Virus record (IMG/VR): IMGVR_UViG_3300014208_000031 | Coordinates: 64,001-128,000 of that record | Origin: a virus | Strand: one strand, 5' to 3' | Length of the DNA stretch: 64,000 nucleotides | Shown here: positions 1-64,000 of the stretch, piece by piece | Position numbering within the stretch: position 1 is the stretch's first letter | Layout: every line of letters starts with the position of its first letter | Made by a program: the position numbers and the translations under genes | The notes under the pieces: model-generated | What the model was told of the DNA's origin: nothing | Databases searched by the model: none | The model's input: the letters and a program-made list of their open reading frames with translations, nothing else

Positions 1-3000
1 GCGAATTCTGGGAACATAATTTTAGGAGTATCAGTAGACGAACAATCTATACGTTCGGCTGAAAATAGAATTCGTGGGTTAATTAAAGGTAATCAAGCAA
101 TTAACCTTAAAGTCAATACAACTGGACTTGGTAGAATTAGTAGTGATGTAGCCCAATTTTCCAAATCGCTAGAAAGTGCGCAGGCAAGAACTTTGGCATT
201 CGTTTCTGCTACTACATTATTATATGGAGTTGGTACTGCCGTAAAATCTATCGCGAGCGCATTTATCGAAACGGAGGCCCGGTTCAAATCAATTCAAATT
301 GTCCTTAATACAACTACACAAAAATTTGACAAATTTAAATCTTCTTTATTTGATATAGCTCGTAACACCGGAAAATCCTTCGAGGAAGCGGCTTCGGCGG
401 CAGAAGAACTGGCGCGCCAAGGTCTAAAAGTAGAAGAAGTTCAAAATAGAGTTAACGCAGCTTTAATATTATCTCGGCAATCAGGATTAGGAACGGCGGA
501 GGCAGTAAAAGCTCTAACTGCTGCAACCAACTCATTTAATAAATCTGCTTTAGATCAAATTGGTATTGTTAATAAGTTAGCAAATGTTGATGCTAACTTT
601 GCTGTATCTTCAAAGGATTTAGTTGAATCACTATCTCGCGCAGGCGCTACCGCACAAGACGCTGGTATTAGTTTTGAGAAATTACTATCTTTAACCGCTT
701 CACTTCAGCAAACAACCGCGCGCGGCGGTGCTGTCATTGGTAACGCTTTAAGATCAATATTTACTAGAATTGAACGGGGTTCTACATTAGATGCACTTCA
801 ACAATTTGGTGTTGCAACAAGAGACTTGCAAGGAAATGTTTTAGCTGTTGACCAAGTATTAAAAAATCTAGCTAATACTTATAAAACATTGAGTCAAGCT
901 GAACAGGCTGCGCTATCCGAAAAAGTCGCAGGCATTCAACAAATTAACCAATTAAAAGCTTTGTTAAGTGATTTAAGTAAGGGTAATTCAATCTATGCAC
1001 AGTCTTTAGCTGTCTCCACCGAAGAAACAAACTCTGCTATCGAAAGAAATAAGGCTTTAAATCAGACTTTACAAACAAACTTAAATGCTATTAAAACAAC
1101 TGCTACTCAATTTAGTTCGGTTTTTGGTAAACTAGTATTTCAACCAACGATTAAAGGCGGCGCGGACTTTGCGCAAAATGTTTTAGGCTCTTTAAACAAT
1201 CAAGATCAAGATAGTAAATCCGCCGGACAGAAACTCGCCGAAGGATTTTTAAGTGGATTTGGAAAAGCGTTAGCTGGCCCCGGCGCGGTTATTGGTATTA
1301 GTGCTATTGTTAATGTAGTAAAACAATTAGGTAAATTTTCTTTTAGTGTTTTAAGTGATTACGCAGCTTTAAATAGTGCTTCTAAATCTCAGGGTTCTAT
1401 TCAAAATGCTATAAATCAAATTTTAGCTACTGGTAATGGTAAATATATTGAAAGATTGGCCCGCGCCCGCTCAATTAAGGAAGAAGAGTTAGCCATTAAA
1501 AGTATAATGTTAGAAATTAACGCTTTGCAAGTTCAGCAAGGAGCGCGAAACTTTAGTGCTGTTCAAAATATTGCTAGAAATAGAGGCGGAGTTACACCTG
1601 AAGGTAGTTTTAAAATACCACGGGCGTCCGGCGGATTTCTTCCTGTGAATCAAGAACAAAATGATATAAATCGGGGTGTCGGCGGGGCATCGCGTTCGGC
1701 CCGGCCTAAAGTTATTCCAAACTTTAATTTCGGCGGAGGCAAAAGAGGAACAGTTGTAGCTAACACTGATGAATATATTGTTCCTAATTTTGGAGGTTCT
1801 GATGGGTCGGCAATATTTAATCAACAAATGGTGGCTAGACATGGATTACCTAGTAATGCTAGAAAAATAAATGCGTCCGGCGGACTTATACCAAATTATA
1901 ATGAATTCAAAGGTTATCCTGAATTTAAAACTCCTAAAATTGGTCGGGGCGGATATTCTGGAATGGTCGGTATTGATTGGAAAAGCGTTTTAAGATATAT
2001 TAGTCCTAATCAATTTTTAGAATCTGCCTTACCATTGGATTCAAGAATTAGAGATGAAAAATCTATTAGTAATATTAGAAATAGAATACAAAAAGGACAA
2101 GAAATTGATCCGGGTTATTTACGTTTAGAAAGAGATAGAAAATCTCGGCGCGGAATCACCGGACACGAAGGGCGACATAGGGCGACAGCCGCGCTTTTGG
2201 AAGGCGTTCAAGACTTTCCAGTAGAATTTGATATTAAAGATTTTGGCCGCGCGCCAAGTTTATATCAGGATGGTAAAATTGAAGAAATATTGGCTCAAAA
2301 ATATTACCCAGAAGCAACAATGACTGGAAATCTTAGTGGATTCGACAACAAAGTAAGACCGGTTCAATTTAATTTTAGACGCGGCGGAAACAGATTATTA
2401 AGTCAATTTTCGCGCGGACTTATTCCCAATTACTTCAACAAATACAACAAACAAGAAGCAAATTATAATGGAGCTTTAATTGATAAAGATTATAAATATA
2501 TTTACGCAGACCAAAACGAAGCAATCAGTAAAAGTAAAAGGTTAGCCGCGCGGGCTAAGGGTTTTGAATTATTGAATCCAGATGACGTTAATTTTCTAGC
2601 TAGAAATGAAGAAATACTAAAAGGCCATAAATTAAAAATAATTGATCCAACTGCTCAACTTACCAAGAATGGAACTGGCAGTTTTCTAAATATTTTATCA
2701 GCTAATTCTTTCAAAGGCGATAAATATAATGAAGCCAGATTATTAAAATTAGGAAAAGTTTCTCCACTGGCGGGGTTTTTGAAATCTAGAGGAATAAGTA
2801 ATCAAAATTTTTTAAAAGCTAAAAAAGCTATTGCACAAAAATTTGGAAATAATTTTTTCATTAAAGCAAAAGAAGGCGGCGGCTCAAATTTTGAAGAAAG
2901 TAATGAAGTATTTTCATCTAATAAAGGTATTTCAAAATTAAAAGATATTGACCCAGAACAATATTATATTCAAGAGGGAATTAAAAATACTACAGGGCTA

Positions 3001-6000
3001 GAATATCGAGTTAATTTAGCTGGCGTGGGTAAAGGTGCTCAAGTATTGGGTCGCGGAGCTTATATTAAAGATGAATATAAAGAAGTCGATCCAAATTTAA
3101 GCGATGCTCCTTCAAGTTTAATTTCAGCGGTTAAATCTGGACGAATTGAAGATTATTTAAAATCTCAAATAGCTATTAGACAAGCGAAACAAGTATTATT
3201 GAATGCCCCGGAAAGAGTCCGGCGCGGCTCAATTACAGGATTTGACGTTTTAGAAACCAACAAAAGTGGATTAGGACTGCTTGGACAGTATTTAGGAATA
3301 GGAAAGGGTGGCGGAGTTGTCGAAGCAAACTTTAGCCAAGACGACCAAGGAAAAGGTCAAGCTGGATATTCTGGATATTTAGACAAATTAGGAGTTTTAA
3401 TTCCGGCGGCTCAAGCTTTGATTAAAAACAATGGAGGATTTGCTGGTGGATTAATTCCCAATTTCAATTTATCTAATAGTCTATTAAATGCCGGAGTAGG
3501 ATTAGATGATAAAGCTAAATTATTAGCACAAATATTGGGCGGATCAAACAGTCCATTAAAAACCGCTATAAACAGAGAGAAAAACGCTGGAATTCCATTA
3601 GATCAGATAAAAGTAGAAAATCATCCAAGTTTAGTGTCCGGCGCGAATCCGGGCGGACTGGCTGTAACTAATAAAATTGATGAACCGGGCGGAATATCTC
3701 AGGGAATATCTCGCGCGATTAAAGAAGGTAGAAATCCTAAAACTTACGGAGCAAGTAAGGGATTGATTCCGAATTATGCTTTACCAAAACCCCCAACTTT
3801 ACTTTCTGGCGCTCCCGCCGCACTACAAGAAGAATTTTTACAAGAATTGTTAAGAGAATTTGCTAAAAAAGCCGCTCTAGAAAATCAAAAAGGATTTTTT
3901 AGTGGAAGAAAATCTGGTAAAATATTAAAAGATTTTGAACAAGAATTAAAGGCGTCGCCGGGATTTGCTAGATTGGGTCAAGCTTCGCAAGATAGATTTG
4001 ATCTAGAAACGTCTAATGTTCAAGCGGCACAGGCAGACAGACGTAGAGGAAAAGTTCAAGGAGCGGCTTTTACAGCGGCTATCGGAGCGCCCATTTTAAC
4101 TAATGCTTTAACATCTTTATCTCCAGCAAATGATAAAACATCCAGACAAATTAACGCGGTTGGAGAATCCGCCGGAACTGGATTAAGTTTGGCTGCAACA
4201 TTCGGATTTAGTCCTTTTGGCATTGCCGTCGGCGCGGCTACTACAGCTTTAGGTTCATTAAGAGGAATAGCTGATGCTAGTAGAAAAAGTTTAGAAGATT
4301 TAACTAAAGAAGTTGATGATACGCGCGGGACATTTGAAGGAAATAAAAATGCCTCGGCTGGTGTGTTTCAAGGCCGTGAACAACTAAAAGATTTAATAAA
4401 TTCTGGAGCTTCAAGTAAAGAAATAGATTTAGTTTCAAGAAACATTCAAGATTTAATTACTTCGATTGATGATCCAAGTTTAAGAAACAAAGTGGTCGGA
4501 GCTAAAACTAACGATGAGCAACTTAATATTTTAGCAGAAATTTCGTCAGCCCAAGCCAAAGCTGTTGCAGAAAAAGGTATAGGAGTGGGTCTAGAATCTA
4601 TAATTGGTAAAAATCGTGATATTTTTAAAGACAAATTTGGCGATACACAAAATATTCTGCTTAATAAACAAGATAGAACAGATGTAACTAGCTTAATTAG
4701 AAGTGCTTTACCCTTAGAGTCAGATGCAACTAAACGCACCGGACAAATTAAGGGTTTAGAAGATTTAAATACCAAGGGAGATTTTGGTTTAGAAAGTTTA
4801 CAACGTGTGCTAGGCACACTAAATATTAGTTCCGACGCCTTAAAACAATTTAATCAATTAGCATTAATCGAACAAGAACTTATTGTTAAAAACGTTGTTC
4901 AACGAAACTTGTCCGCCGATGCGCTCAGAAAAGAAAATGAGAATCTAAAAGTTTATACTCAGTCGGTGGTAAATCTAGGAAGACTACTAGATAAATTACA
5001 AACTTCAACAAATTTTAAATTTGATTTAGGTAATATTAGAGATTCTGGAACTAGAAATCGCGCGTTATCCGGGGCAAATCAAGCTTTAGGGACTTTAGGT
5101 AATTTTATTACTCCTGAATCTCAAAATAGATTTGAAAATAGAAATAAAGAGTTTGAGATTAAAAATGAATTAATAACTAGCACTAACGACATTAGTAAAA
5201 GTTTTATTAACAGTTTTGATTCTTTACCAAGTTTAGTTGAAGAAGCTTTTAAGAAATTCACTACCGGAAACGGAGAAGGCGAAGGTAAAAATATTTCCGG
5301 AAAATCTGAATCATTAAAAAATACTTTACAACAATTAAGAGCAAATGTTTTAGCTGCCGGCGGCAATCCAGTTGACGCAGCAAATTCTGGCGTTGAAAAA
5401 ATAAACGAACAAATTAAATTACTTGGAGGACAAGACGGTAAATTAAATAAACCCTTAATTGACGCTCTAATCAAATTTAGAGACGAGGGGTTGAGCATTC
5501 CTGTGGAGTTAGCCCGCGCTCAAAGTGAGGAAGCAAGACTTTTACAAGCTAATACCAACAAACTTAACGAACTAAACCTTTCTATAACAAAACAATTAAG
5601 TTTCCTCGGCGGACGAAGCTTTAAGGATTTACCGTCCGCGGACTTCAGTGATATTAAAGGTGGTTTAAGTCAAGGAAAAACAATTAGAGATTCAATTAAC
5701 GGACCTTTTAGTAAAAGAATATTTAAATCGCGCGGATCAAGTTTCCAAGATTTCTTCCAAGGTCAACAAATTGATGAAGAAGCGGAAAACTCTCGTCGTG
5801 GAAATGTATTTTCTAAATTGGCGGGCGGAAAACTTCAAGCTTTTAAAGAAGGATTTTTAGATGGAAATCCCGAACAAATTAACCAAGCAAGATTTGAAGT
5901 TGCGAAAGCTTACGAAGCCAGACAAACAGAAACTTTAGATAAATTAATTAAAGATGCTCAAAATTCTGGAGATTTTGAATTCGCAGATCAATTAAGAAGT

Positions 6001-10537: not shown

Positions 10538-10673
10538 AATTCAATAATTCAATTGCTTTTCTAATTAACTCTGAAATTGTATAGCCCGTTTTCTCACTTA
10601 ATTTCTTTAATTTTTCTTTTTGATGTTCAAATATTTGATAATCCGCGCGGATAAGTTTAGGTTTTTGATTCAT
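10524..10673 (-). CDS. Small ribbon-helix-helix (CopG/Arc-like) DNA-binding protein, not in the ORF track
   Basis: Hand translation: MNQKPKLIRADYQIFEHQKEKLKKLSEKTGYTISELIRKAIELLNYGPE (49 aa). The L..LS..TG.TISELIR.AI pattern is typical of RHH proteins. Overlaps the HNH start. Confidence 0.75.
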   Translation of the reverse strand: MNQKPKLIRADYQIFEHQKEKLKKLSEKTGYTISELIRKAIELLNYGPE

Positions 10674-12895: not shown

Positions 12896-14638
12896 ATGAA
12901 CCCCACAGGAGTCCAATATTTTACACATAGCGATAAAACGAATACGAGCGGCCAGCTACAAGTATTTTATGCATTTACGGGCGGTTCTGGAACTCATATT
13001 ATCCCCAGTTTACCTTTTGGTAAGTCCGCGTATTCAGGATTTATAGATAATACTGGATCGTTTTATGATGTTTCTGGAAGCGGATTTTTCGGAGGTCAAA
13101 CTAGTATTCGAGTAAATAATGCTTCCGGGCTTTCTAGTCAAACTTGGAGTATGATTATTGATTATAAAATTTCAGGCGGACAGAATAACGTGCTTTTCTC
13201 CAACTATTCGTCTGGAACTATAAATAGCGGATGGATAATAGGTGTTAACGATGCGAATTCAGTATACCTGGAATATTATTCTAATCAAGGTCCGCAAATT
13301 TTAATATCTAACACTACATACGGAACACAAAATACAATAGTTATTACTAAGAATAATTCCGCAATAAATTTAGATTATTTAGATTATAATACAAAATCTT
13401 TAATTTCAGAAAATTTTTCAATTGATCCTGTATATTTTTTACCTAGTGACAATTGGTATATTGGAGCGAGCACGGGAACCCCCGGATATTATTCTGGACA
13501 AAAATATAAGGGGTTTATGGATTACTGGCTTTATTTTGCACCAGCACTTTTACCAAGTCAAAAATTAGGTGTTTTATCAGGATTATATTGTGATATAACT
13601 AATCCAATTCAAACAATTAGTTCTTATACTACTAGTTTGGTTACGGGGCAAACTACTGGATTAGTGAGTATATTTACTGGAACTACTGGGGAAGCAAACG
13701 AATTCTACAATTATATTACGGGTGCATGTAATTCAATTCATGCTGTATACTCGGGTATTAATTTAACCGGTTTCGTGTATGATATTGGAACGGTTCCTCT
13801 AACTCAAACAATTACTACATACATAACTGGAATTACAGGCGGCGGACCGATTGAGAATAGCGGATATTCTATTAGTCATGGATTTAATGCGGTTAGCTAT
13901 CTAAAAGAAATAAATGCGACGGACATCTCAGAGCTATATTATTTTCCTCGATCTACTAATAAAATAAATATCAATAACGAATTATCTTTCGACTTTACAT
14001 TAAATAAATTTATTTTACCATCTCAATATAATATTAATCAAATTAATTTTTATATTAATTCAGTGGGACAATTTGGCAGTGGTTATAACGTAACTGGAGA
14101 TTTTTATAATTTAACGATAGATAAAAGCGGTATGTATTTTGTTTCTGGAAATTATTTATCTGGAGATTATCAAGGTAATGATACTAATATTATTGATATA
14201 ATCAGCGGAAATAGAGTTTTTAACACGGGATTTTGGGTATTAAACAATAACACTGGTATATCTGGGATGGGATTACCAAACTCGTTAGTATTTTTGGGTG
14301 GACAAAAACTTAAAAGTGGACTAGACTATAGAATATCTGGAACGGATTTAATTTTAAATAATTCTTATTGGTATGATACTATAGATAGTGGAAGATATTG
14401 GAGTGCGCCGATTGATACTGAAAGTAGTTTTACTTCTGGAGTTTGGAATAACTTAGATTTAAATTCTGGTTATTTTGCCCGTGGAACCACACAGTTATGG
14501 ATGAATGGCGTGAGAGAGAACTTAAACGATGATTATATTGAAATTAGTCATTTATCTTTACTCAATAACTCTGGACACTATTTAGATAATTTAAATAATA
14601 TTTTTATTAGTGATTTAGGATTTTTAGAAAGTATATAA
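12896..14638 (+). CDS. Virion protein with an N-terminal LamG/concanavalin A-like domain
   Basis: WSMIIDY...VLFSNY...GWIIGVND...WYIG...YKGFMDYW...L is a LamG-like pattern. SG/TG-rich. Confidence 0.6.
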   Translation: MNPTGVQYFTHSDKTNTSGQLQVFYAFTGGSGTHIIPSLPFGKSAYSGFIDNTGSFYDVSGSGFFGGQTSIRVNNASGLSSQTWSMIIDYKISGGQNNVLFSNYSSGTINSGWIIGVNDANSVYLEYYSNQGPQILISNTTYGTQNTIVITKNNSAINLDYLDYNTKSLISENFSIDPVYFLPSDNWYIGASTGTPGYYSGQKYKGFMDYWLYFAPALLPSQKLGVLSGLYCDITNPIQTISSYTTSLVTGQTTGLVSIFTGTTGEANEFYNYITGACNSIHAVYSGINLTGFVYDIGTVPLTQTITTYITGITGGGPIENSGYSISHGFNAVSYLKEINATDISELYYFPRSTNKININNELSFDFTLNKFILPSQYNINQINFYINSVGQFGSGYNVTGDFYNLTIDKSGMYFVSGNYLSGDYQGNDTNIIDIISGNRVFNTGFWVLNNNTGISGMGLPNSLVFLGGQKLKSGLDYRISGTDLILNNSYWYDTIDSGRYWSAPIDTESSFTSGVWNNLDLNSGYFARGTTQLWMNGVRENLNDDYIEISHLSLLNNSGHYLDNLNNIFISDLGFLESI

Positions 14639-14649
14639 ATTAATTTAAT

Positions 14650-17364: not shown

Positions 17365-17379
17365 ATATAGGTATTAAGT

Positions 17380-30325: not shown

Positions 30326-30535
30326 TTATATACTTTGGTCGCCGGTTTGTATTAAACTTTCTAATTCTTTATTTACTCTCTCAAATTGTTCCAATACATT
30401 ACAATATTTAATATAAAAAGATTTATCTAGGATAATATTTCCGTCGAGTTTTTCTACTAAATTAATAATTTTTATTTGTGAAGTCCGCGCGGCTAAATTG
30501 ATTTTTTGGGCCATTATTTTTGGGGTAGCAACCAA
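30326..30535 (-). CDS. Hypothetical protein
   Basis: Co-oriented ORF. Confidence 0.45.
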   Translation of the reverse strand: MVATPKIMAQKINLAARTSQIKIINLVEKLDGNIILDKSFYIKYCNVLEQFERVNKELESLIQTGDQSI

Positions 30536-34844: not shown

Positions 34845-37800
34845 TTAAACTAAGTTTAGTTCAGTTTGGGGATTTTCTACTGTAGTTTCGATTGTTTTTG
34901 GTAGTAAATCTTCTGAGTCCGCCGAGGGTAAATCTTTTAACTCCGATAAACGCCAATACACTTTTTCGCTTTGGACTGATAAATCAGATACGAAAATCGT
35001 ATCACCTTTCTTTTGTCCGCGAAATGCTATTATTTCCCCCTCTTCTGGTAATTTCTTTTCTTCATCTATATGATTCATCAATGATTTTCCACAAAATAAT
35101 AATCTACACGAAGAAGTATTGTCAGAAATATTCATTTTATAATACATATTTCCTTTTTTCGACTTACTTTTGTAAATTTCTTTGATTGTAGCCACGCAGG
35201 TTGCAGTTTCACCTTCTAACATTGATTGGAATTCTAAAATGTTAATCAAATCATTTCTTTCTTCTCCAAATACACTTTTTAATGTATGAGAATAACTGTA
35301 TCCAAGAAGTTTTTCCTCTAGAATTAAACTGGTTAGGTTTTCATGTTGTGAATTCATTTTGAAAATCTTGGAATAGCCAATGCTTTTCTTTCTTAGCGTT
35401 CCCAATCTTGTCTTGCGCGCAACTTTTTTTCCCAACGAATCTGTCCAATTATCTAAATTTTTAAGAGAATCAAGTAAATTAAAATTATTATTTTTACCAT
35501 TATTGATTAAGTATAGTTTCTCTTTGTCTGTTAAAAGATTCCAAATTTGCGCTTCCAATACCGTCTTGGTTCTAGTTTCAGTAATAAATTCATCAATACA
35601 ACCCGATTGGATCAACGCGCTAACAATTCCGATTCCTAATTTACTTTGACGAAAACATTGGAATAATTCATATTTTGTCGAATAATCAGATTTGAAGGAT
35701 TTTAACTTTTCTAAAGCAGATGAAGCAATTCCTTTGATTGAACATAATCCAAATCTTATATCGTTTCCCACAATTTCAAAGTCTAAATTACCATGTTTAA
35801 TTGATGGCGGCAATAGTTTAATATTGTATAATTGAAGTTCTTTCTGAATTGAAGCAATATATTCTTGAGAATCTGCTTCATTTTTAGACATTCTTAATAA
35901 AGCAAGAAAAAATTCTTTTGGATGATTTTCTTTAACCCATATTGTCATTGCTGTAAGCATCCCATAAAGGGCGCTGTGTGAAAAATTAAATTGGTACCCG
36001 GCGGAATCCTCAACAATTTTCCAAACTACATCGGCAATTTCCAATGGATGATTATTATCTTTACATGCTTTATAAATCTTGTCTTTAGATTCTTTAATTT
36101 TTAATTCATCTTTTTTACCAATGGCCCGGCGGACAAGTTCACAATTCTCTAAATCCATGCCTAATTTGTTAAGCATGAGTAAAACTTGCTCTTGAAACAA
36201 ACAAACGCCGCCAGTAGGCTTTAAAACATCATCAATAACATGATATGTTTCTTTATAGATTCCTTTATGTATATAATCACAGTATTTTTCTAAATAATCC
36301 ATCGCCCCCGGCCTAGATATTGCAAGACAACACGTTAATTCAAAGAAATTTTTACATTTAATTTTTTTAGCACAACTACCCTGAGCAAATGTTTCTAATT
36401 GAAAAATACCAAAAGTGCGCTCGAAATTTTGAAGTGAATCGTAAATTGATTGATCGTGAATATTTATACTAAATGGATCAATTCCAATGAGTTTAGCAGC
36501 TTCAAAAAGGGTTGAGCTTGTCTTGAGCCCCAAAATGTCAAATTTTACTGATAGGTCTTGTGCTTCATACATTGAAAAAGATGTAATTATTTCTTTAGTA
36601 GAAGATAATTCTAAAGGCATTACATCATCCATATTTTCAAATGTGATTGCTATCGCGCTGGCATGAACTGACTTACATTTTATTAACTGGTAAAGCGTTC
36701 TAGAAATCGAATATATTTCAGGATAACTATCACAAAACTTTTTAAACTCTGGAACTTCTTTATAGACTTTATCTATTGGTTCTGGTTTTCCGTAAATTGT
36801 TGGGATTAGCTCTGCAATTGGATGAACGTCTGATTCTTCTAGTTCATATAAAACTTTTCCAACCTCTTTGATTAAATTCTTAGATTGAAGTTCTTGCAAA
36901 GAAACTATTTTAGCTGTTTTACCATTAAATTTATCCCGAATGTAAGATTGAATTTCTCCCTTGCGATAGAAGCAAAAATCCTGATCCACATCACAAATTA
37001 AAGAACCTAGCAAATAAGTAATTCCGTCAACTTCTTTCTTTTTAGCTCTTACTTTACTAATAAAACGCTGAAAAAACAATTGCATCGGTAATTCTTTTCC
37101 AATTGGGTCAAGATGAATGCAACCAATCATATAAAACACCAAACTTCCACCAACTGATCCGCGTCCTGGCCCGCGCGGAATCTCGTTTTTTACAGCATAC
37201 TGATAAATATCCCAAATCGCCAAGACATAATCTACGAAACCTAAATCTTTAAATGTTTCTAACTCATATTTTAAACGTTCTGTATATTCTTTATATCGTT
37301 CTTTATCTATTTTACCATTTTCTAATTTTTCTTTAAAACCATTATAACAAACTTGTCTCAAAAAGTCATAATTTGAACAGTTTTTTCGCGCGCCAACAGC
37401 TTTCTTTTCTTCTTCACTAATTTTAATTTCAGGTAGTCTAACCCATTCATATAAAGGAAAATCATAAGTAGAAAATTTAGACTCAAAAATATTATCTTCT
37501 TTATTTTCTTGTTTTATCTCGTTCCATTTTAAAAAATTAAAGGAGTCGTCTGAGTTGTGTTCTAGATTTGGCTTGTTAATATTCGTTCTTTTAGAGATAC
37601 AACAAAGTGTTTGATAGGATTTGTATAAACTTGGAGAATAATAGTAAATTGAATGAGTTTTAACTATTGGATAATTATACTCTTTACAATATTTGTATAA
37701 CGCATCTTTAATTAGAAATGAAAATGGTAAATCATGGGTTTCGGATTCATCAAAAAATATGGGATTTGTAAAATTTAAATCTGGTAAACAGGTGTTAAAT

Positions 37801-41494: not shown

Positions 41495-42142
41495 CTAGAT
41501 TTCTATCGAATAAAACTGTTTCCAGAGTATTTTAAAACACAATTCAATGTCTTTTAGGCTGTCATGTAAGTCTTCTTCTTTAAATTCTATGTTAAAGTGT
41601 CGGGCGCAAGCAGTTTGAGATGTTTTTAACCCGCGTTTAATGATAGTGGAAAGTTTATATTGCCAAGCTAGAAAATTAGACAAATCCGGTTGAAGACCTA
41701 AAAGGATCGCTTTTTGTATTAAATTTGTGTCGATAATTCGGTCAATATATGAATAATCTGGTTTTTTATTCAACGTTCTTCTCAAATTATTTAATTGATA
41801 AATATCAAATCCAAGAAAATTGGCTCCTACGATTCTATAATCCTTGTTGTAGAGATATGATTCAAAATGATTTAAAATTGGTTCTGGCGGCTGTTTTAAC
41901 TCATTATAGCGGTTTTGGTCAAACTTTGTAATCCGCGCGGCGTCCTTGCTTATTTGAAAATTCGGTATATCCAAATAATAATTATGTTTTTCTAAAATGT
42001 TTTTACCTTCACAAATTAAATAAGATAATTGAAATGGTCTAGAAAAATAGAGGTTGAGACTTTCTGTCTCAGTGTCGGCGACCAGATACTTCTGTTTGTC
42101 TTTGAACCTCAATAAATTTTGACCTAAATCGGATAAACTCAT
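41495..42142 (-). CDS. DEDDh 3'-5' exonuclease (DnaQ/epsilon-like)
   Basis: VADTETE, GANFLGFD, IIDT, LHDSLKDI. Confidence 0.85.
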   Translation of the reverse strand: MSLSDLGQNLLRFKDKQKYLVADTETESLNLYFSRPFQLSYLICEGKNILEKHNYYLDIPNFQISKDAARITKFDQNRYNELKQPPEPILNHFESYLYNKDYRIVGANFLGFDIYQLNNLRRTLNKKPDYSYIDRIIDTNLIQKAILLGLQPDLSNFLAWQYKLSTIIKRGLKTSQTACARHFNIEFKEEDLHDSLKDIELCFKILWKQFYSIEI

Positions 42143-44975
42143 TGCCAGTAAATATCTAAATAGTAAACCAAATCTACAAAAGGAATATCTTGTTCATATT
42201 TCGGCCCGTCTCCATTGATTCGGTTTGACCATTTTTGAGTTTTAGAATCGTAAGCCAATCCGTCCCCAACATCTTCATTTCTTACCAATAATTTATGTTT
42301 GTAAATTTTCTTATTAGGATTTTCTTTGGACCATTCAACTAATTTATCTAAAACTTCCGATAAATTATCTGGATTACTAGATTCGTATTTGTTAAATAAT
42401 AACCCGTAGCCTTTCCAATGTTTTTTAAATCTTTCTAATTCTATAGTATCTTTATTCATATTTTTTTAAAACAAACAATCAACATCTTCCTTGTCTGCCG
42501 GGTTTTCAATTTTTGGCTCTTCTACCTTAAAATAACTAATATCGTATTTTATTACCCCGCAATCCCCGCCGTGTTCATATAAATCATGTTTAGCTCCAGT
42601 AATAAAAAGCATGAAATCTAACTCTTCTTCTTTAAAGAACGTTCCATCCTCTCCATTCCCGGCGGACCATTCCCATTTATCGAATCCTTTATAGATAACC
42701 CGGCGGCCAGATTTCATATTTTCTATTTGAAAAAGTGTTTTATTCATAATTTTTAATATAATCCTTGTTTTCTCATTTTGTCAGAATAATCTATTGATTC
42801 ATTATAGTGTTTCCGCCATTTTTCTCCATCAACCCCCTTGTCCGCGCGGCCTTTTCTAATATCTCGTTCTATTTCAAACTGAACTAATTCTAAGTCTCCG
42901 CCGTGATAACTGTTTATTTGATAAATTTTAGATGGTTTTTCACCTTCAATTTTATAGATTAAACCCTGACACCCGCTTGGTAAAATACAAAACATAAATT
43001 CATAGGTTTTGCCGTTAATTATTCTTTTCATTAATTTTTGTTTCCATTTAAGTAAAACTCTTCTTCGTTTTTAGCGCAGCGTGGGCAAATCCAACCAGAA
43101 TATTCGCAGGTAAATTCAGTATCGGGAGTAAAATCTAATCGGGCGCGGCCACCTTCTTCTAGTTCCTTGTGGGCTATAAATCTACCGCAAAAATCACATT
43201 TTATTAGATTATTATTAGTTTTCACAGCTTCTCTACAAATTGGTTAAATTTATCGCCCACTTGTTTTAATTTCTTTTTTAGTAAAACTTTGAGCGCATCC
43301 GCCGAAATACTTGATTCTAAATCCGCCGGATTTTGTCCGTCTTTAGTGATTTTGATGTTATAATTATTAACTTTTATTTCCATATTAAACTTCTTTCTCT
43401 AATCAATTCTTGTTTTTTGTTTGAATAATATTGGTTATATCTTTCTGATTTGTCGGGAAATTTGAGAACGGGCGGCGAAGTATAAAAAGTCATATACCCG
43501 GAACATATTCCAGTGGCATAAAATGGTTGTGGCGTTTCATTATATCTTTTTTCTTCGGACTCTGCCCAATCTTTTGATTCATTTTCTATAACCCACATTT
43601 CGGGTTCAGTTAATTCACGGTTTTTAGTATATTTGCTAAAATCTGTAATTTTTACAAATGTATCATTATCTAAGTGTTTAAAAACTGTGGCGTCACGAGG
43701 CTTTATATTAGTTATTTTAAAATCATTGTCAATTAAGCTTTCAAAAGATGGATACATATTCAAAAAACTAAATTGAGTTGCGGAATAACCAACCACCATA
43801 GGCGGTTTTGGATGTTTTCTTTCGTAAGCAGAAATCCGCGCGGCCTTCCATGATTCTAATAGTCTTTGTAACATAATTTAATCTTGAATTTCATATTCAT
43901 TATCCCAATCAGAAGCTAGCCGGGCGAACTCTTTCCAAATTTCTTTATTATTAGTCTTTTCGGCTATAAACATAATTAAATCTTCTAATTTATTTACTTG
44001 AGAATTTAAATCCCCAATTCCAGATTCGTCATTATAATCAGAATAAACGCGCGGACGCAATTCATTAAATTCTACATATTTAGAATCTTGAACTTTATTT
44101 TTTACTAATTTAAAAATTTTCATCTATTATTAATTCTTTTTTATCTTTTCTAACAACAGAAACCGAAATTTTCCTATCTTTAATAAATAAATCCACGTAT
44201 AGGTCCGTAGGATTCGTATTAGTTAGTGCGGCTGTATTATTTTTAATTAAGTTTATTAAGTCCGCGTGGTTGTATAAAACCTTATTTAGTTTTAAGGACA
44301 CAGAATAATTACCTTTTCTCCGACTTTATCCGCGTGAATATCGTAAAATTCATCATACCCATGTTCTGTTACTTTTAACCAATCAGCGGCTACACGTAAT
44401 GGTAAATAACTATTTCCTTCCTCATCGCTTGATAACCAAATTTCTATATCATCGGGAAACTGTTTTAGATATTCAATTAGTTTTTGTTTAGTCATTTTAA
44501 CAAACTTCTTTAACTACTTTTAAATTCGTATTACTAATTATCTTGAAAAATTCTTCACCATGAGAGTTTCTATCAAATAAAATATCCGCGGACTTAATCG
44601 TTACTGTATTTTTCGTGTATTGTAAAAGTGTGCCATAATGTTCGACGGTACAACTTTCTAGCCACTGTGTTACATCAAGCTTTTTGGGATTAAAAGTAAC
44701 AGAAATTAGGAGTGGCACGTTATTTTTCTTTTGTTTATCGGTCATTCTAAGTTATATCCTTTTGCTTGAGCCGTAGGGTCGTTCAAATTACTGAATTCAT
44801 TCTTTAGTTTATTCAAAGTTTTTAAGTCCGCGCGGCTTTCATCTGGATTGATATACAAAAAATGCTGAATATTTTCTGATAACCATCCTTCTAAAAATTC
44901 TTCTTGATCTTTATTTCTAGATAAATTGTTGCAAGATTGCCAAATGTCTATTAAGTTAGATAATTTATCTGTCAT
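42139..44975 (-). other. Array of about 11 small hypothetical ORFs (42139, 42466, 42753, 43031, 43222..43383, 43374, 43878, 44110, 44292, 44497, 44742)
   Basis: Densely packed, co-oriented, with overlapping starts and stops; typical phage accessory region. Confidence 0.6.
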
Positions 44976-45762: not shown

Positions 45763-47887
45763 TTAAGATTTATATTTTCCCAAGGTTCCATTATTACTTG
45801 CTTGTAACGCCTCGATTGAGGCTTGACGTGGACTTATAAATTTAATTTTAGACGGTTTTTCTGTTTCTATTATAATTTCCCCGACTTCTATCATTTTTTG
45901 AACTAAATGGTTTGCATATTGAGAAGGGAATTGGTCCGGCATATTATGAATTATATAATTTTTAGCTTCCTCAAAGTTTTTAAATATTAGTTGTTTTTTC
46001 ATAATTTTATTTAATAGACGTTTTGATTTGTGTTTTATTACAAATTTTACATTGTCTGGATTGAGATAATCTCCAATACGTATATCCAAATTCTTTACTT
46101 TCTAAAATTTTCCATTTATCCCAAGAATGTCCGAAAAAACATCCAAATAAATCAGTAAATAGATTGTTAGAATGACAGGTTGGAGTTTTGCCGTCTGTCC
46201 GGCGAATTGTCGGATGTTGGGTCGGTGGATTATCGTTGTGTTTATTCATATATTATTTTCCTGTGACTAAAAATTTAATAAAAAATAGTAATCCTAAAGA
46301 AAACCACCCGATTACAAACAATGGATAATCTCTGTATAAATCTGTAAAAATTTGAATCATAATTTTATTTCTACTAAAGTTCCTTCTTTTATAGCCGCCG
46401 AGATATAACTTAAAAACATAATTGCCTTATCTTGAAATTTAAGAGTGGAGTCGCCCAAATTTTCTAAGGGAACCGGGAATTTATATGTTTTATAACTTTT
46501 AGTTGTGTGATCGTCCCGCCCGATAGTATAATAAAAATATCCCTTTCTATATTCATGGAAAGTAACGGTATTATTTTTAACTAAATCTTTTAAGTTTGGT
46601 TTATTCATTATTTAGCTCTTTCTTTAAAACTATAGCCAAAGTTCGTCTAGTTTGAGCCACGGCGTCCCAAGCATTTGACGTAGTAGAAACAGATACTCTT
46701 AAAGATTCTGGGACTATTTCCCATCCTTCAGTTACTAATCTATTAACACGCTTTTCAAAATTTTCGCAATCAATATCGGATATTAACCAAGTTTTCATAA
46801 TATTTTCTTAAACTTTTCAATTTTATTAACTAACAACTCTACAATCTCACGAATTCCGGGGACTCCATAAGAGTCACCGTTCACTTCAAATTCAGTTAAA
46901 ACTTTTGAAGCTAATCGGCGGATTTCTGTATCGTCCGACGCCCAATCGCGCAGACTTTTGCAATAAAACTTTCTTAAATCATCAATAGGTATTTTTTCTA
47001 CCGATTCTTCTAGACTAAATAGATTATTTTGTTTAAAAAAGTTATTCATTTTAATTCTAATTCTAGCTGTTCTGGTATAACGTAAAATTCTCCGTCTACA
47101 ACTTGAGGATTTGGTATTTTGTTTATTATACTTTCAATAATCTTCTTTTTTAAGGGTCGCGCAGTCCAATTATTAAAACAAAACTGAATAACTCCGGGTT
47201 TGAGACTGTTTAAAGTGTCCGGCGAAACATTTAATTCGGGGGAAATCTTGCGGACAAGCGAAACCAAATAGATTTTATGTTTGTAACTTAGCTCTTGAAT
47301 ATTTATCATTCTACTACTTTCCAAGTTTCATTCTTTATTAAACCTTCTTCTTTTTTATTTTGATCAATAACCCATTGTCGGGCCGCGGCCAAACTATCAA
47401 AAACCATTCTATGTTTATTAAATCCATTAAGTGAATCCCCGGAATATTGATGCAGTGGACACCAAACTTCTTTTTCTATCTTTTTATTGTCTTTTACACA
47501 TACCCAATCCCAAAAACCTAGAGTTTCATACTCAATTTCTTTTTTTAAATATTCTATACCGAATTTAGTTCCGTTGGTTATAAATCTGATTGGATAGGAT
47601 TTATTCATAATTATTTAAGCTAAAACAGGCTCACCCAATTCTTTAATTTCAATACTATTGGCTAATTGAGTTAATTTATCCGCCAAATTTAGCAAATCTT
47701 CTTTAGTTACAGTATTTAAAACAATTTTAGTAGAAAAAGTTTCGTCCGTTCGTTGCCGCGCGGATATTTCCAGCGAGTTATAATTATAAGGAACAGTTTT
47801 CTTGCCAACCTTAAAAGAGCCTTGTGAGTTATTTAACGTTAAATCAATTATTGTGTCGTATTTGTTTATTGTGGTTTGTGTTTTCAT
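45763..47887 (-). other. Array of about 8 small hypothetical ORFs (45763, 46007, 46357, 46601, 46795, 47046, 47306, 47615)
   Basis: Packed co-oriented ORFs. 46601 is DUF1737-like (VNRLVTEGW). Confidence 0.6.
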
Positions 47888-48966: not shown

Positions 48967-49344
48967 TTATTTTTCACAATCACATTTAGTATGTCCGCAA
49001 GTTTCACATAATTTACCATAACTAGCCTGATATTGACTAATTGAATTACCGTTAAATCCGTGGCGTTGGGCCGCGCGGACTTCTAATAAATACAAACTGT
49101 TGTGAATATTATTTATAATACTTATATTCTCAGGACAAGGTATTTGATTTTGTAAATAAACAATTCGGTCTAGAACTGCGCGGAGAACACTTTGAATTGT
49201 AGTTCCGGGATAACTATTTTTATTTCCGGGGAATCGTTCTGGATTCTTTTCGTCGTGTCGTTTAACAAAAGTTAATGTTTGATCTAAATCTCCATCTAGA
49301 GTTAAAAGTTTATATTTGTGGCCGGGATCAATTATTTTTATCAT
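48967..49344 (-). CDS. Divergent Tad1-like protein
   Basis: PGHKY...L.FVKR...GTTIQSVL..VLDRI.YLQ...C.EN.....SL..L..R..QR; same layout as 29591..29974. Confidence 0.5.
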   Translation of the reverse strand: MIKIIDPGHKYKLLTLDGDLDQTLTFVKRHDEKNPERFPGNKNSYPGTTIQSVLRAVLDRIVYLQNQIPCPENISIINNIHNSLYLLEVRAAQRHGFNGNSISQYQASYGKLCETCGHTKCDCEK

Positions 49345-49346
49345 AT

Positions 49347-50867: not shown

Positions 50868-51004
50868 TCATTTAGATAAAATCATTCATATAAGCCGCGC
50901 GGATATTTTTCTCGGTTGGCTCGATTCCAATGTTTTTGCAAATTTTAATACAGATTTTTTTGTCGTGATCTGAAATTTTACAATTACCATAAATATTTTT
51001 TGAT

Positions 51005-54357: not shown

Positions 54358-55359
54358 TTAAGTATTCTTGCTTTTTCTTGTTTCTAGTGGTAATCCCAGT
54401 CTTATTTTAATTTTTTTGGTTAAATAAGAATTAAGATTGACGATTCGCGCAGATTCTTTAAAAGACTTTCCAGAGTCCAAAAGTTCTTTTACTTTTTCAA
54501 ATTTCATTTCTGCTTTTTCATAATATGTTATATGGTTAACATTAATGTTGTCCCATTTCCTCTTCATAATAGGAAGATTGAGTTTTATCGCACATTTCTT
54601 TAGCTCCCTAAGAATCGGGAACTTATGCATAATCAAAATTATACAATTGTCTTTTCGATTGGGTGGAGAAACGCGAACAGTTAAATTAAATATTGATTCT
54701 ATCTTTTCTTTTAGAGCTGCAAAAAAATCGCCCCAATTTTTATGACAACAAACCTGTATTACTACAGTGTTATTTTTTTTCTTATGAATGCATCCGTCGC
54801 CATCTATCAAACCAATTAAAAAAGATAAAAATAAGTCATTGGGTAAACTTTTATAAAACTGGAAGTTTTGTGGTGGATATAGTGTTTTATTCTGCTGTAA
54901 GTCAAATTTATCCTGAATTTTAAAATAGTTTTTATTATCGTTTCCCTGTAATGAAGACTGCACCGAATATTTTATTTCATTTTTATATTCATGCGAATGT
55001 TTGTGTGAATAAAAATTAAACTTAACATTTTCAAAAGCATTCTTTAACCATTCGGTATCTTTTTCATTTACCGAAATACAAATTCCGCCAGACTTAGTAA
55101 AACATCCATCAGCCGCGATAAAACCCATTTGATAATAAGCTAACGGGGTTTCTAGTAAAAGGTTACTTAATTCACATGTTCTATTATATGCTTCGGTGAT
55201 TTCGGGATTCTTTTTTAAGCCTAAACGACGTGCTCTTTTATGAATTGCAACTACAGATCGGTCGGGGAATAATTTAGTTAATTCTTGATGTGTGGCATCA
55301 AAATAGAATTTTCTTAATGTGTTGTCTTCTTCTGTTGTATAGTCTGGATTTTTTGCCAT
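54358..55359 (-). CDS. LAGLIDADG homing endonuclease with N-terminal Myb/HTH-like domain
   Basis: YYQMGFIAADG and FLIGLIDGDG; YT.EED..LR...RS..AI..RA.RLGL. Confidence 0.9.
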   Translation of the reverse strand: MAKNPDYTTEEDNTLRKFYFDATHQELTKLFPDRSVVAIHKRARRLGLKKNPEITEAYNRTCELSNLLLETPLAYYQMGFIAADGCFTKSGGICISVNEKDTEWLKNAFENVKFNFYSHKHSHEYKNEIKYSVQSSLQGNDNKNYFKIQDKFDLQQNKTLYPPQNFQFYKSLPNDLFLSFLIGLIDGDGCIHKKKNNTVVIQVCCHKNWGDFFAALKEKIESIFNLTVRVSPPNRKDNCIILIMHKFPILRELKKCAIKLNLPIMKRKWDNINVNHITYYEKAEMKFEKVKELLDSGKSFKESARIVNLNSYLTKKIKIRLGLPLETRKSKNT

Positions 55360-55807: not shown

Positions 55808-56532
55808 AAAGCGTCCGCCGAATAGTGTTCCAGCATCGTCATAATATCTTTTTTCATATAATCGACTTTGATAATTTCTATTTTCTTGTCCGCCGGATTC
55901 ACCCAAAAGATATTTAGATTTTTATTAACGTTATAGCCCTGTAAAGACAAAAGATAGGAATATAAGCTTAACTGAAGAGAGTATCTTGTGATCGCATCGT
56001 TTTTCAGATGATTTAACGGATATAAAAGTTTATTGTAGGCTTTTTTTGTCAAAGACTCATTTGTTTTGAGGTCGCAAATTCTTATTTCATTTTTATCTTT
56101 ATTATACTCCACAAAATCACTCAAACCAGACACGAGTAAATCTTTAGAATAGACAAGAACTTCCGAAAAAACCGGATATTCAAATGTTGGATAAATATCA
56201 TTTTTGAAATTTTCTACTATTTCTTTATTCGCGGATTTCCTTATTTTTTTAGTGTTAATAAAATGTTCTATTTCTGCGTGTACTGCCGAGCCGTATAGAC
56301 AACTTAGATCGCGCTTATCGTTCCAGCGCTTTCTTAAAACTTCTTTATCTATTCCTTCACGTTTTGCACACATCGTAAGAATAATCCCAGATTCGTCGAA
56401 GGGAATTTCATATAAATGTATAAGTTGCGAGACTGAGATATATTTATTATTTTCTTTGTCTATGTAGCTGTGATCGTCCGCGTGAAACGTGACAAAATCT
56501 TGCTCAAATGGATTTTTAGGTTTTCTTCCCAT
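55804..56532 (-). CDS. PD-(D/E)XK exonuclease
   Basis: H.Y..SVS, GSAVH..IE, SEVLV, SG.SD, DLKTN, YSLQLSLY. Confidence 0.85.
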   Translation of the reverse strand: MGRKPKNPFEQDFVTFHADDHSYIDKENNKYISVSQLIHLYEIPFDESGIILTMCAKREGIDKEVLRKRWNDKRDLSCLYGSAVHAEIEHFINTKKIRKSANKEIVENFKNDIYPTFEYPVFSEVLVYSKDLLVSGLSDFVEYNKDKNEIRICDLKTNESLTKKAYNKLLYPLNHLKNDAITRYSLQLSLYSYLLSLQGYNVNKNLNIFWVNPADKKIEIIKVDYMKKDIMTMLEHYSADAF

Positions 56533-57788
56533 TATAGTAATATTTCTTGGATTCTATTTTTTGCTATTTCGCAATATTCTGGATTAAGATCAAATAAAAT
56601 GTAATCTCTTCCTAGTTGTTTGACTACTAAACCCACGCTGCCCGCGCCGCCAAATGGATCAATTACAACACAAGGCTTAATTTCGTCAGTCTCGCATTTG
56701 CAATCTTTTTTCCAACCAACTGTTTTCTTTTCTACCATTCCGGCGAGAATCCGGGCTTTGACTTCACTAGCATTTTGAACATTATTTTTTTTAAATTCTT
56801 TAGTTGCTTCGCAGAGATATTCACCGTTTGAATCCGCGCCACAAAGTCTTTTATGTTCTTCGTCCGCGCGACCTTTTTCTATTATTCTTGTATATGGTTT
56901 ACCGCAATTAAAACAGCAACCATATTCACTTGTTCCGGCTAAAATACATGGTTCAATAAGTTTGGTGGCCATTACAGCAAAATGTGCTCCCCTAAAACTT
57001 TCGGGATTTATTGTCCAAACCGATCTAATATTTCTTTTAGAAGACATTAAGGCTCCCATTTCGGCGCGGCTAATTCCCTTTTTACCTTTTCCGTGGCGAT
57101 CTTCTTTAGAAAATATATTTAAATCTGATCTTGTAGATTTTTGTTCTTTTGCTTTTTTTATACAATCCAAAGTATAAGGATTTGTAGTTTCTTCTGCAAC
57201 TGCTTCATTATCATAATAATACTTAGTTCCTTTAGTTAACATAAAAACAGTTTCATGAGATTTAGTCGGGCGGTCTTTGCAGCTTTCTGGCATACAACTT
57301 CCTGAATATTTGTTGTTAAAACTAATTCCTTTAGCCCAAATAATTTCACTTCTAACTGTCCAGCCCCAATCTTGGAGTGCAAATGCTACTCTCCAAGGAA
57401 CACCTATTAAATCTTTAGGTTTTAAACCGGCGGGGACTTTTGATCCTTTTCCCTCAACTGACTGAGCTACTCCCTTGTTTGCTCCCTTGTTACTGGCAAC
57501 TTGATAAGTTCTATTAGCTGCATAACTATCTCCTAAATTCAAATATAAAATTCCATCGTCTCGTAAAACTCTATAAACTTCCGAAAAGATTTTTACTAAA
57601 TTGTCAATATATTCTTGTAAGGATTCTTCTGCTCCAATTTCTAAATGTTTATTAGGATCATCTTTGGATAAATAAGAGCGTAAAGAAAAGTATGGAGGAC
57701 TCGTCACGCAAAGTTGTATGGATTTATCATCTAACTGTTTGAGTAAGTCTAAATTATTTCCACAGTAAATCTTATTTAATTCAAGCAT
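56532..57788 (-). CDS. Beta-class amino DNA methyltransferase (SPPY, likely N4-cytosine)
   Basis: VTSPPY...NLGDSY...IIWAK...DPFGGAG. The real start is probably MLELNK at 57788. Confidence 0.9.
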   Translation of the reverse strand: MLELNKIYCGNNLDLLKQLDDKSIQLCVTSPPYFSLRSYLSKDDPNKHLEIGAEESLQEYIDNLVKIFSEVYRVLRDDGILYLNLGDSYAANRTYQVASNKGANKGVAQSVEGKGSKVPAGLKPKDLIGVPWRVAFALQDWGWTVRSEIIWAKGISFNNKYSGSCMPESCKDRPTKSHETVFMLTKGTKYYYDNEAVAEETTNPYTLDCIKKAKEQKSTRSDLNIFSKEDRHGKGKKGISRAEMGALMSSKRNIRSVWTINPESFRGAHFAVMATKLIEPCILAGTSEYGCCFNCGKPYTRIIEKGRADEEHKRLCGADSNGEYLCEATKEFKKNNVQNASEVKARILAGMVEKKTVGWKKDCKCETDEIKPCVVIDPFGGAGSVGLVVKQLGRDYILFDLNPEYCEIAKNRIQEILL

Positions 57789-57804
57789 GTTGTAATATAT
57801 ATTT

Positions 57805-58398
57805 TTATTGGTTGGATTCGTAGAATGCGCGACAAAACCCCATCGGGGTAATCGAACGAAGCATTTTGGTCTTCTCTGACTTCCCGCCGAGTCTTTGCAA
57901 ATGTGAGCCTTGAGGACAGCTACGAATGGGTTCAACCATATTTGTTGGTTCTGGAAAATTAAATCGGCCCCAAAGTCCAGTTTTTTTACTATAAAAATCT
58001 CCGTAAAAATAAGGCTGGAAATATCTCGGCCCCAACTCTTTCATTTCTGGAATTAATCTATTTATCCGCCCGACGGGATTTTCAATAGCATAAAATTTAG
58101 GGTTTAGTTTTTTAATTATTTCTAAAGTTCTTTTAATTAATTTAATACTATATTCTGTTCTGCCGTCCAAATCCTTGTCTTTGAACCATCGCGCGCCGCT
58201 AACGGCAAAATTATCGCAAGGCGGCGCGGCCAATATTCCATAAACATCATCAGGGTCTAAATCATTTAACCAAGAATCATCAAAAACATCATGACCATAT
58301 TTTATATTAATTTGAATACACGGATAACCGTTTTGACGATATGGTAATACCCAATTTCCGCTGTAATCAAACAGCGATAAAATTACTTTATTTAACAC
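57805..58398 (-). CDS. Short C5-cytosine methyltransferase-like protein
   Basis: LSLFDYSG (degenerate motif I), AAPPCDNF (motif IV), IENPV (motif VI); 197 aa. Confidence 0.75.
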   Translation of the reverse strand: MLNKVILSLFDYSGNWVLPYRQNGYPCIQINIKYGHDVFDDSWLNDLDPDDVYGILAAPPCDNFAVSGARWFKDKDLDGRTEYSIKLIKRTLEIIKKLNPKFYAIENPVGRINRLIPEMKELGPRYFQPYFYGDFYSKKTGLWGRFNFPEPTNMVEPIRSCPQGSHLQRLGGKSEKTKMLRSITPMGFCRAFYESNQ

Positions 58399-63904: not shown

Positions 63905-64000
63905 TTTAAGAATTTAAGAAAGACTTTAAGTTTTTTGGTTTAGTAATTATTTGTGAATCCGCGCCGATTTTCACCGGTGTTAATTCAACAATCTCGGCGG

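Follow-up and report, generated by a model that had tools for sequence, protein, structure and literature searches.

In Escherichia coli, very-short-patch repair by Dcm/Vsr leaves the CCWGG word over-represented and its C-to-T derivatives scarce, and yeast mitochondrial DNA carries mobile GC clusters, G/C-rich palindromic elements of 30-60 bp that insert as units. The HIP1 word of cyanobacteria (GCGATCGC) is a single dominant octamer in 15-300-fold excess, with conservation at orthologous sites, a periodicity of 10-90 kb and orphan methylases to match it (PMC5861425, PMC4390886). In chloroplast DNA, for which context-dependent mutation dynamics have been described in angiosperms and gymnosperms (Morton; PMC8821512, PMC9339276, PMC10378972), equilibrium G+C varies between 10.2% and 48.5% with the tetranucleotide context, higher A+T evolving in A/T contexts (PMC8821512). 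Cytosine deamination and CpG decay depend on local GC in vertebrates (PMC3169530, PMC5054122), and in phages the avoidance of restriction sites (palindromes) has been reviewed (PMC12602166) and local codon-usage effects have been described (PMC8410138). Here we analyze the palindromic octamer CCGCGCGG and the short G/C-only islands to which it belongs in a phage genome, the 167,664-bp viral record IMGVR_UViG_3300014208_000031. The window is the 64,000-nt stretch at positions 64001-128000 of that record (32.7% G+C; C 16.9%, G 15.8%), and coordinates refer to it unless the record is named. CCGCGCGG is real, but it is merely the most frequent word among some 940 such islands and, on balance, not a dedicated signal word.

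A preliminary description of the window, made from its sequence alone, had listed 11 copies of CCGCGCGG and one of CCGCGCGCGG and had likened them to HIP1. Every coordinate was confirmed exactly. Six copies of CCGCGCGG are coding (2546..2553, 41933..41940, 42842..42849, 43836..43843, 47756..47763 and 49071..49078), one lies in a divergent intergenic region (10643..10650), one within the gene for the DnaE replicase (37171..37178) and one, intergenic, forms part of the run GCCGCGCGG (50895..50902); the remaining two are at 30485..30492 and 44828..44835. The 10-nt all-G/C island CCGCGCGCGG occupies 716..725, inside a giant tail/tape-measure open reading frame (ORF). The claims of roughly 30 CCGGCGG/CCGCCGG heptamers and of several copies of related words are likewise borne out by the window, which holds 18 CCGGCGG, 10 CCGCCGG, five CCGGGCGG and three CCGCCCGG. 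The whole record contains 25 copies of CCGCGCGG and 3 of a reversed control word. This sequence is not an assembly artefact, since it is matched at 99.99-100% identity over 17 kb and 8 kb by two assemblies made independently from other samples.

The excess of the octamer over simple expectations is as large as had been asserted: base and dinucleotide models predict 0.1-0.4 copies where the record holds 25. An order-1 Markov (dinucleotide) model of the window predicts 0.08 copies of the octamer and 1.85 of the CCG-S(1-2)-CGG family, and dinucleotide-preserving shuffles of the window yield 0.17 copies, with none of 100 shuffles reaching 11. When synonymous codons were shuffled within each of 244 ORF-based genes (200 shuffles), CCGCGCGG fell to 1.5±1.2 copies (maximum 5) from the 22 coding copies observed, and CCG-S(1-2)-CGG to 16.5±3.5 from 108. 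The enrichment thus persists under both the synonymous-codon shuffle and the dinucleotide model, under either of which, according to the preliminary description, a spurious signal should vanish. The coding copies are split 10/9/3 among the reading frames, in keeping with its remark that the word occurs in different frames. Its further remark that these words use otherwise rare codons is only partly right, for CCG makes up 21% of proline and GCG 23% of alanine codons, and CGC and CGG account for 15% and 7% of arginine codons. The shuffle excess, the frame independence and the context effect on synonymous sites described below all uphold its view that the phenomenon acts at the level of DNA and is not accounted for by the needs of amino acids or codons.

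The notion of a discrete, HIP1-like word found no support. Across Markov orders 0 to 6, the copies expected in the record are 0.1, 0.4, 2.7, 6.5, 10.3, 25.5 and 26.9, compared with the 25 observed, and simulating the window under an order-5 model yields 9.65±3.0 copies of the octamer against 11 observed and 46.5±7.3 members of the CCG-S(1-2)-CGG family against 47. The excess vanishes only at the hexamer level, so that nothing is specific to the octamer; as it carries no information beyond its hexamers, there is no reason to seek a CCGCGCGG-binding factor. A full-text literature search for the octamer returned primer sequences only. CCGCGCGG and HIP1 are alike in being G/C-rich palindromic octamers that occur far above low-order expectation, in all frames and between genes. 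However, HIP1 reaches a density of roughly one copy for each gene, in some cases exceeding it (PMC5861425), whereas CCGCGCGG is present at 0.15 per kb with an observed/expected ratio of about 1 under the hexamer model; periodicity is absent among the islands as a whole, the 25 copies of CCGCGCGG being too few to reveal a periodicity of 10-90 kb.

All-G/C runs of at least 6, 8 and 10 nt number 338, 124 and 39 in the window (1..64000), compared with 137, 23 and 3.4 under the order-1 model. In the record, maximal runs of 6, 7, 8, 9 and 10 nt occur 361, 246, 161, 83 and 36 times where a geometric model predicts 87, 29, 9.6, 3.2 and 1.1, and 90 runs are at least 10 nt long against about 1.5 expected, the longest reaching 15 nt. 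The totals are 941 runs of at least 6 nt (7.2-fold) and 334 of at least 8 nt (23-fold over the geometric expectation), or about one island of 6-15 nt per 178 bp (5.8 per kb overall). All-G/C octamers occupy 706 sites in the record, compared with an expectation of about 24. No single word is more frequent than CCGCGCGG, whose 25 copies stand alongside GCCGCGCC (25), CCGCGCCG (24) and CCCGGCGG (24); the CGCGCGGC/GCCGCGCG pair accounts for 40 sites, and many other all-G/C octamers are comparable. A CCG start and a CGG end come together in only 57 of the 941 runs.

The islands are indifferent to the reading frame, with run starts distributed 312/312/273 by codon phase, and they extend into non-coding DNA, where 46 runs of at least 6 nt were found against 3.3 expected in the 13 kb outside ORFs of at least 50 codons, a set that may hide some small genes. 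Inter-island distances are exponential, as in a Poisson process, and regular spacing was not found among the islands (coefficient of variation 1.03). Runs composed of A/T only are also in excess, with 42 of at least 20 nt against 15.7 expected. A role in hairpins or RNA structure was ruled out, as complementary neighbors no more than 60 nt apart number 68, compared with 84.6±7.8 for random island pairs; a hairpin partner lies near only 9 of the non-coding runs. Dinucleotide odds for CG, GC and CC/GG are all about 1.2-1.26, and protection specific to CpG was likewise rejected: TCG and CGA are not favored at four-fold sites, and CpG is not favored with A/T flanks. At two places (34813 in the window and 128342 in the record) the intergenic islands CCGGGCGG and CCGCGCGG lie 2-10 nt upstream of a AAAGGATATA motif, which may be coincidental.

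The composition of synonymous sites depends steeply on their neighbors. Four-fold sites carry G/C in 17, 25, 39 and 67% of cases as the number of G/C among their four nearest bases rises from 1 to 4, and this fraction ranges from 16% up to 75-87% with longer flanking G/C tracts. In a logistic model, the coefficients are symmetric and decay with distance (0.82 at ±1, 0.36-0.51 at ±2, 0.41 at ±3, 0.24 at ±4 and 0.1 at ±5, then about 0), and the same model applied to phage T4 returns coefficients that are all near 0. The neighbor effect crosses codon boundaries and acts on synonymous first positions, with CGN chosen over AGR for 82% of the arginines preceded by two G/C bases but for only 33% of those preceded by two A/T bases. 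The order of amino acids is shifted too, more weakly: the ratio of synonymous-shuffle to whole-codon-shuffle run counts is 1.27-1.30, compared with 0.93-1.04 in controls. The ratio of observed to synonymous-shuffle counts is 2.0 here and 2.27 in the relative L007 introduced below, compared with 0.88 and 0.84 in controls. An artefact of GC-rich genes or of heterogeneity between genes was ruled out, the effect keeping its strength when the analysis is confined to the window or to the 96 genes with less than 32% GC, and when the GC-rich 6-24 kb region is removed. These measurements show a double-strand-symmetric, frame-independent rule of the DNA, by which a site is more likely to be G/C the more G/C lies within about ±5 nt. 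A graded and symmetric effect of this reach could not be produced by a single methylase motif.

Translational selection for G/C-ending codons, or for codon pairs matching the tRNA pool of a GC-rich host, would account for some of these data. Among codons with G/C at their first two positions, 33-48% have G/C at the third as well, compared with 12-23% of those that begin with two A/T bases, and the putative host clade is GC-rich. Nevertheless, the effect is symmetric over the neighboring codons on both sides, reaches ±5 nt across codon boundaries, is equal in the three frames and is present in non-coding DNA, and codons built of A/T show no shift to G/C-ending forms. Frame independence largely refutes this explanation, to which we attach next to no probability.

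To place these values in context, we compared the record with phage T4 (50 kb, 34% GC), in which G/C at four-fold sites is flat (19, 19, 21 and 18%) and the observed/expected ratio for runs of at least 8 nt is 0.3, with 18 other bacterial and phage loci (0.3-5.2 on the same ratio) and with 74 DnaE-related viral loci, each 10 kb or longer and with 27-49% GC, 50 of them below 36%. Among the 74 loci, the run ratio has a median of 1.0 for runs of at least 6 nt and 1.07 for runs of at least 8 nt, with maxima of 2.9 and 5.9, compared with 7.2 and 23 here. The context log-odds have a median of 0.45 and a maximum of 1.61 in those loci, and reach 2.28 in this genome and about 2.9 in L007. The latter, an 11.9-kb contig from Logan SRR18749960 and the sole close relative to be found, shares only DnaE with the record (84% nucleotide and 92% protein identity) and displays the trait more strongly, with run ratios of 9.7 (at least 6 nt) and 46 (at least 8 nt) and four-fold G/C rising from 16% to 77%. 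Because the trait is shared with L007 and missing from T4 and the 74 related phages, it is rare and inherited in this lineage, and it is real.

The flanks of DnaE in L007 differ from those in the record, with ThyX where the record has ThyA, and with genes for an IMPDH-like protein and an I-HmuI-like endonuclease; the lineage is strongly mosaic. No nucleotide match to the phage was found among 50,697 phage records, in which DnaE protein matches do not exceed 27% identity; no close relative was found in IMG/VR, and ten further proteins had no cluster mates at 90% identity except in near-identical strains. Comparison with L007 hence draws on one 3.4-kb gene in one relative, with no outgroup and with synonymous sites near saturation. 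Within it, four-fold sites are about 50% diverged, and both genomes keep G/C in G/C contexts. The window copy of CCGCGCGG at 37171 reads CCGCGTGG in L007 and the copy of CCGCGCGG in L007 reads TTGCGCGG here, these being the only two sites that can be compared. Usage of all-G/C hexamers, purged palindromes apart, is correlated with that of L007 (Spearman 0.93) and less so with that of unrelated GC-rich bacteria (0.6-0.7). As far as this alignment can tell, individual islands turn over while the preference for G/C is kept.

The context rule sets where G/C accumulates; the choice among words is set by the avoidance of palindromes. Fourteen of the 64 six-bp palindromes are absent from the record and nearly all others fall below Markov expectation; the absent ones include GATATC (0 against 46 expected), CTTAAG (0 against 26), CCCGGG (0 against 21), TTCGAA (0 against 20) and GGATCC. 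Shorter words are depleted as well, with observed/expected ratios of 0.60 for GATC, 0.38 for GTAC, 0.67 for GGCC and 0.35 for CCWGG (35 against 101), and with GGWCC also below expectation. Seven of the eight all-G/C six-bp palindromes are depleted: CCCGGG and GGGCCC do not occur, CGGCCG occurs once (20 expected), GCCGGC twice (31), GGCGCC four times, CCGCGG 27 times (61) and GCGCGC 37 times (75). CGCGCG, with 93 copies against 90 expected, is not depleted, and CCGCGCGG is CGCGCG plus one C and one G; the octamer therefore ranks first because restriction-site avoidance has depleted the other palindromes and spared this one. The hexamer vocabulary of the islands is otherwise ordinary for GC-rich DNA; long runs also avoid CCC/GGG. 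The purge indicates heavy exposure to type II restriction with little protective modification, and contigs of the putative host clade show no avoidance of GCCGGC, CGGCCG or CCCGGG. The depleted words, from most six-bp palindromes to GATC, GTAC, GGCC, CCWGG and GGWCC, resemble those of known restriction avoidance, which accounts for the choice among words but not for the excess of G/C runs.

The long runs also obey a rule at their ends. Between 40 and 48% of long-run ends read 5'-T|C, compared with 27% for short runs, from which the rule is absent, and T precedes 84% of the long runs beginning with CCG, whatever their frame or orientation, and does so in non-coding DNA too. G is enriched at position -2 of long runs, and GTCCG/CGGAC is the top over-represented pentamer (239 against 139 expected). 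Runs bounded as 5'-T|C ... G|A-3' are found in the window at 1628, 1877, 42842 and 44828. The two ends of a run are independent of each other (C...G 333 observed, 344 expected), and the palindromic look of the islands arises because one end rule acts on both strands.

Between them, the strand-symmetric preference for G/C beside G/C and the palindrome purge account for the octamer. We consider it somewhat better than an even chance that this preference reflects a context-dependent substitution bias. Under this explanation, the bias would work against a strong pressure towards A/T, which would agree with the presence in the phage of genes for dCMP deaminase (160058-160378 of the record), ThyA (31154-32275; 373 aa, of which roughly 30 form an insertion) and DHFR (32217-32702). 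Together with a dATP/dGTP diphosphohydrolase-like protein (PF18909; 47953-48822), these genes are consistent with a dTTP-skewed nucleotide pool and with such pressure. Damage that converts G/C to A/T, for example cytosine deamination, would be suppressed where the duplex is locally stable; alternatively, the bias could stem from context-biased repair or polymerase errors. In either case the process would have to be asymmetric (damage or biased repair), as an equal lowering of both mutation directions would leave the equilibrium unmoved. Neutral sites in G/C-rich contexts would then evolve to a high equilibrium G+C and those in A/T contexts to a high A+T, and the octamer itself would have no function. 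The palindrome purge channels the islands into CGCGCG-containing and CCG/CGC-type words, which GC-rich DNA commonly uses in any case. The signatures of ultraviolet-induced dimers and of a TC-specific deaminase do not fit the context tables, as the distinction between G/C and A/T outweighs that of pyrimidine neighbors and runs starting with C are the commonest.

This explanation has its closest counterpart in chloroplast DNA, which is likewise AT-rich, in which the composition of four-fold sites and non-coding DNA follows two to three flanking bases on each side, G/C contexts evolve higher G+C and A/T contexts higher A+T, and codon usage follows context rather than translation. The amplitude here is larger (from 16% to 67-87%, compared with 10-48.5%), neighbors are felt as far away as about ±5 nt, islands of 6-15 nt are visible and the effect is missing from 74 related phages; furthermore, substitution matrices have been measured for chloroplasts, whereas the process here is known from the resulting composition alone. 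In vertebrates, too, C is lost less readily beside G/C neighbors, so that local G+C and the keeping of G/C reinforce each other, although methylated CpG and local or regional GC are concerned there, as opposed to a reach of about 10 bp that is not CpG-specific in a phage. The over-representation of CCGCGCGG and the scarcity of its C-to-T derivatives recall very-short-patch repair, but no pair of Vsr and C5 methylase was detected, the effect is not bound to a motif and CCWGG itself is depleted here. Mobile GC clusters of the yeast mitochondrial type are not matched, the islands being 6-15 nt long, frame-preserving inside genes and devoid of complementary partners. The signature is an unusually extreme context-dependent composition shaped by restriction avoidance.

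Several points weigh against a mutational origin. The 5'-T|C end rule remains unexplained by it. A purely physical cause (duplex breathing, for instance) would be expected in every AT-rich genome, yet T4 and 74 phages lack the effect; since it is missing from related phages, some factor particular to the lineage must be assumed, be it polymerase, repair, lifestyle or host. A test for a shared direction of adjoining G/C-A/T differences between the two DnaE genes was not significant (31 against 20 at distance 1, p=0.16). The shift in amino-acid order can be produced by strong mutation pressure or by selection, and mutation bias and DNA-level selection are not separable on the basis of a single 3.4-kb, near-saturated alignment.

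Selection at the DNA level is an alternative: local G/C clusters would be favored as such, as clamps that stabilize the duplex, assist annealing in recombination-dependent replication or are read by a protein that recognizes G/C clusters without sequence specificity, and restriction avoidance would pick the permitted words. Such a role would sit well with the importance of G/C versus A/T rather than of particular words, with the shift of amino-acid order as well as of synonymous sites, with the lineage-specific nature of the trait and with the non-random 5'-T|C ends of long runs. Exchanges between C and G, which preserve G/C, are also relatively frequent at DnaE four-fold sites in G/C contexts (4/21, against 5/265 elsewhere), albeit in small numbers. 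On the other hand, the islands are Poisson-spaced with no regular pattern, long A/T-only runs are in excess instead of being avoided, adjoining islands are not complementary, individual islands turn over between relatives, and no candidate binding protein or function was found. We judge this explanation rather unlikely.

The preliminary description had proposed that two phage methyltransferases might modify the octamer. The gene at 56532..57935 (- strand) encodes a genuine N6/N4-family DNA methyltransferase of 467 aa, a candidate only, with the motif IV sequence TSPPY, the form typical of N4-cytosine enzymes; its C-terminal stretch resembles the C-terminal parts of CcrM and M.PvuII. The second, a 197-aa ORF at 57805..58398 (- strand), is C5-methylase-like only. 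It lies upstream of and overlaps the first and shows motifs I, IV (PCD for PCQ) and VI (LFDYSG, PPCDNF and ENPVG), but it lacks a target-recognition domain, scores below the Pfam cut-off (19.6 bits, cut-off 22) and has not the length of a complete enzyme. The record yielded no bona fide C5 methylase (PF00145 matches of 18-20 bits, cut-off 22), nor any convincing Vsr (PF03852, 17.1 bits against a cut-off of 27, within a DUF7487/DUF559 homing-endonuclease-like protein), and a search of the record for base-modification and repair functions returned no PurZ, TGT/DpdA, uracil-DNA glycosylase (UDG), HhH-GPD glycosylase or DnaQ-like exonuclease.

A HIP1-like palindrome, in which the CCGCGCGG family is the target of a phage methylase whose N4-methylcytosine resists deamination, or of very-short-patch-type repair, would find its enzyme in the TSPPY-bearing methylase. 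The scarcity of inner transition derivatives (3 for CCGTGCGG/CCGCACGG and 7 for CCACGCGG/CCGCGTGG, compared with 25 for CCGCGCGG) and the survival of the excess under codon shuffling would also agree with it. Yet hexamers fully predict the octamer, several non-palindromic all-G/C words are as frequent, the islands are Poisson-spaced, the site in DnaE is not conserved in the only testable relative, CpG is not favored with A/T flanks, neither a bona fide C5 methylase nor Vsr was detected, and a single motif cannot yield a graded neighbor effect. We regard this reading as very unlikely.

Active maintenance of the islands by a lineage-specific activity, as opposed to a passive mutational equilibrium, is in our view unlikely as well. 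The activity could be the phage's SPPY-type N4-cytosine methylase or a repair enzyme favoring cytosines in G/C clusters, or it could lie in the error spectrum of the unusual PHP-fused DnaE-type Pol III alpha replicase (34845-38294, - strand), for which no DnaQ-type proofreader was found in the record. RNase_T genes adjoin DnaE in the more distant relatives L009 and L010, and no proofreader of the DnaQ/RNase_T type was found in this record.

Homing-endonuclease-like genes (HNH, LAGLIDADG and DUF7487/DUF559) hold 0-2.3 islands per kb, compared with 5.8 overall; the island-poor genes lie at 38926-39912 (+ strand) and 54358-55359 (- strand) of the window and at 46565-48286 and 49059-49976 of the record. 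Their low content is expected if islands build up slowly in resident DNA, and it fits a recent arrival from phages without the trait.

The genomic setting points to a gene pool much richer in GC than the phage. A 129-aa ORF (record 4049-4438; L003:1684-2073) matches an internal RpoB segment of a Verrucomicrobiales metagenome-assembled genome (45% identity, E 9.5e-10), and three RpoB-bearing contigs have 55-62% GC and no excess of G/C runs. The RpoB-insert-like ORF had no match in the host search of genome contigs, and ThyA matched such contigs at 42-47% across many phyla, which is uninformative. Three adjoining genes (record 13917-20297; L030:1917-8297) have 52%, 60.8% and 47% GC in this 33% GC phage. 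The middle one encodes a GDSL lipase/acylhydrolase (record 17419-18840, 60.8% GC), the closest homologue of which is 69% identical and lies on a 61.5% GC phage-like contig with Mom and an N6/N4 methylase. It appears to have been acquired recently from GC-rich DNA, and the phage, judged from these matches, seems to live in a Verrucomicrobiales-like, GC-rich pool with a putative host of that clade while itself staying at 33% GC. Proteins identical to those of the record are also carried by a 224,142-bp contig, so that the record may be incomplete despite a completeness estimate of 100%, or a larger variant exists.

This setting raises the alternative that the genome, or most of its genes, came from the GC-rich pool of the putative Verrucomicrobiales host (55-62% GC) and that the islands are what has yet to decay. 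The GC-rich lipase gene and its neighbors would fit such an origin, the excess of G/C runs grows as gene GC falls (1.35, 1.6, 2.2 and about 7 genome-wide), and the DnaE data (21 sites) are compatible with decay from an ancestor with G/C at nearly all G/C-context sites. However, context-independent decay would give no neighbor dependence within genes, yet this dependence is undiminished in the 96 genes with less than 32% GC, and the effect in L007 is the same or stronger despite near-saturated synonymous divergence. A context-dependent process would be needed anyway, making this a non-equilibrium version of the substitution-bias explanation; as an account of its own we find it quite improbable.

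If the bias is mutational, this phage would show how far context-dependent substitution can go in nature outside organelles, and would be a caution for codon-usage, host-prediction and motif-enrichment methods that assume a uniform neutral composition. If selection or a dedicated enzyme is responsible, the islands would represent a new DNA-level trait; under active maintenance they would be "micro-isochores" of about one helical turn and a new way to shape the local base composition of a virus. As a phage at 33% GC in an apparently GC-rich pool, it may in addition be a good system in which to study the uncoupling of phage and host base composition.

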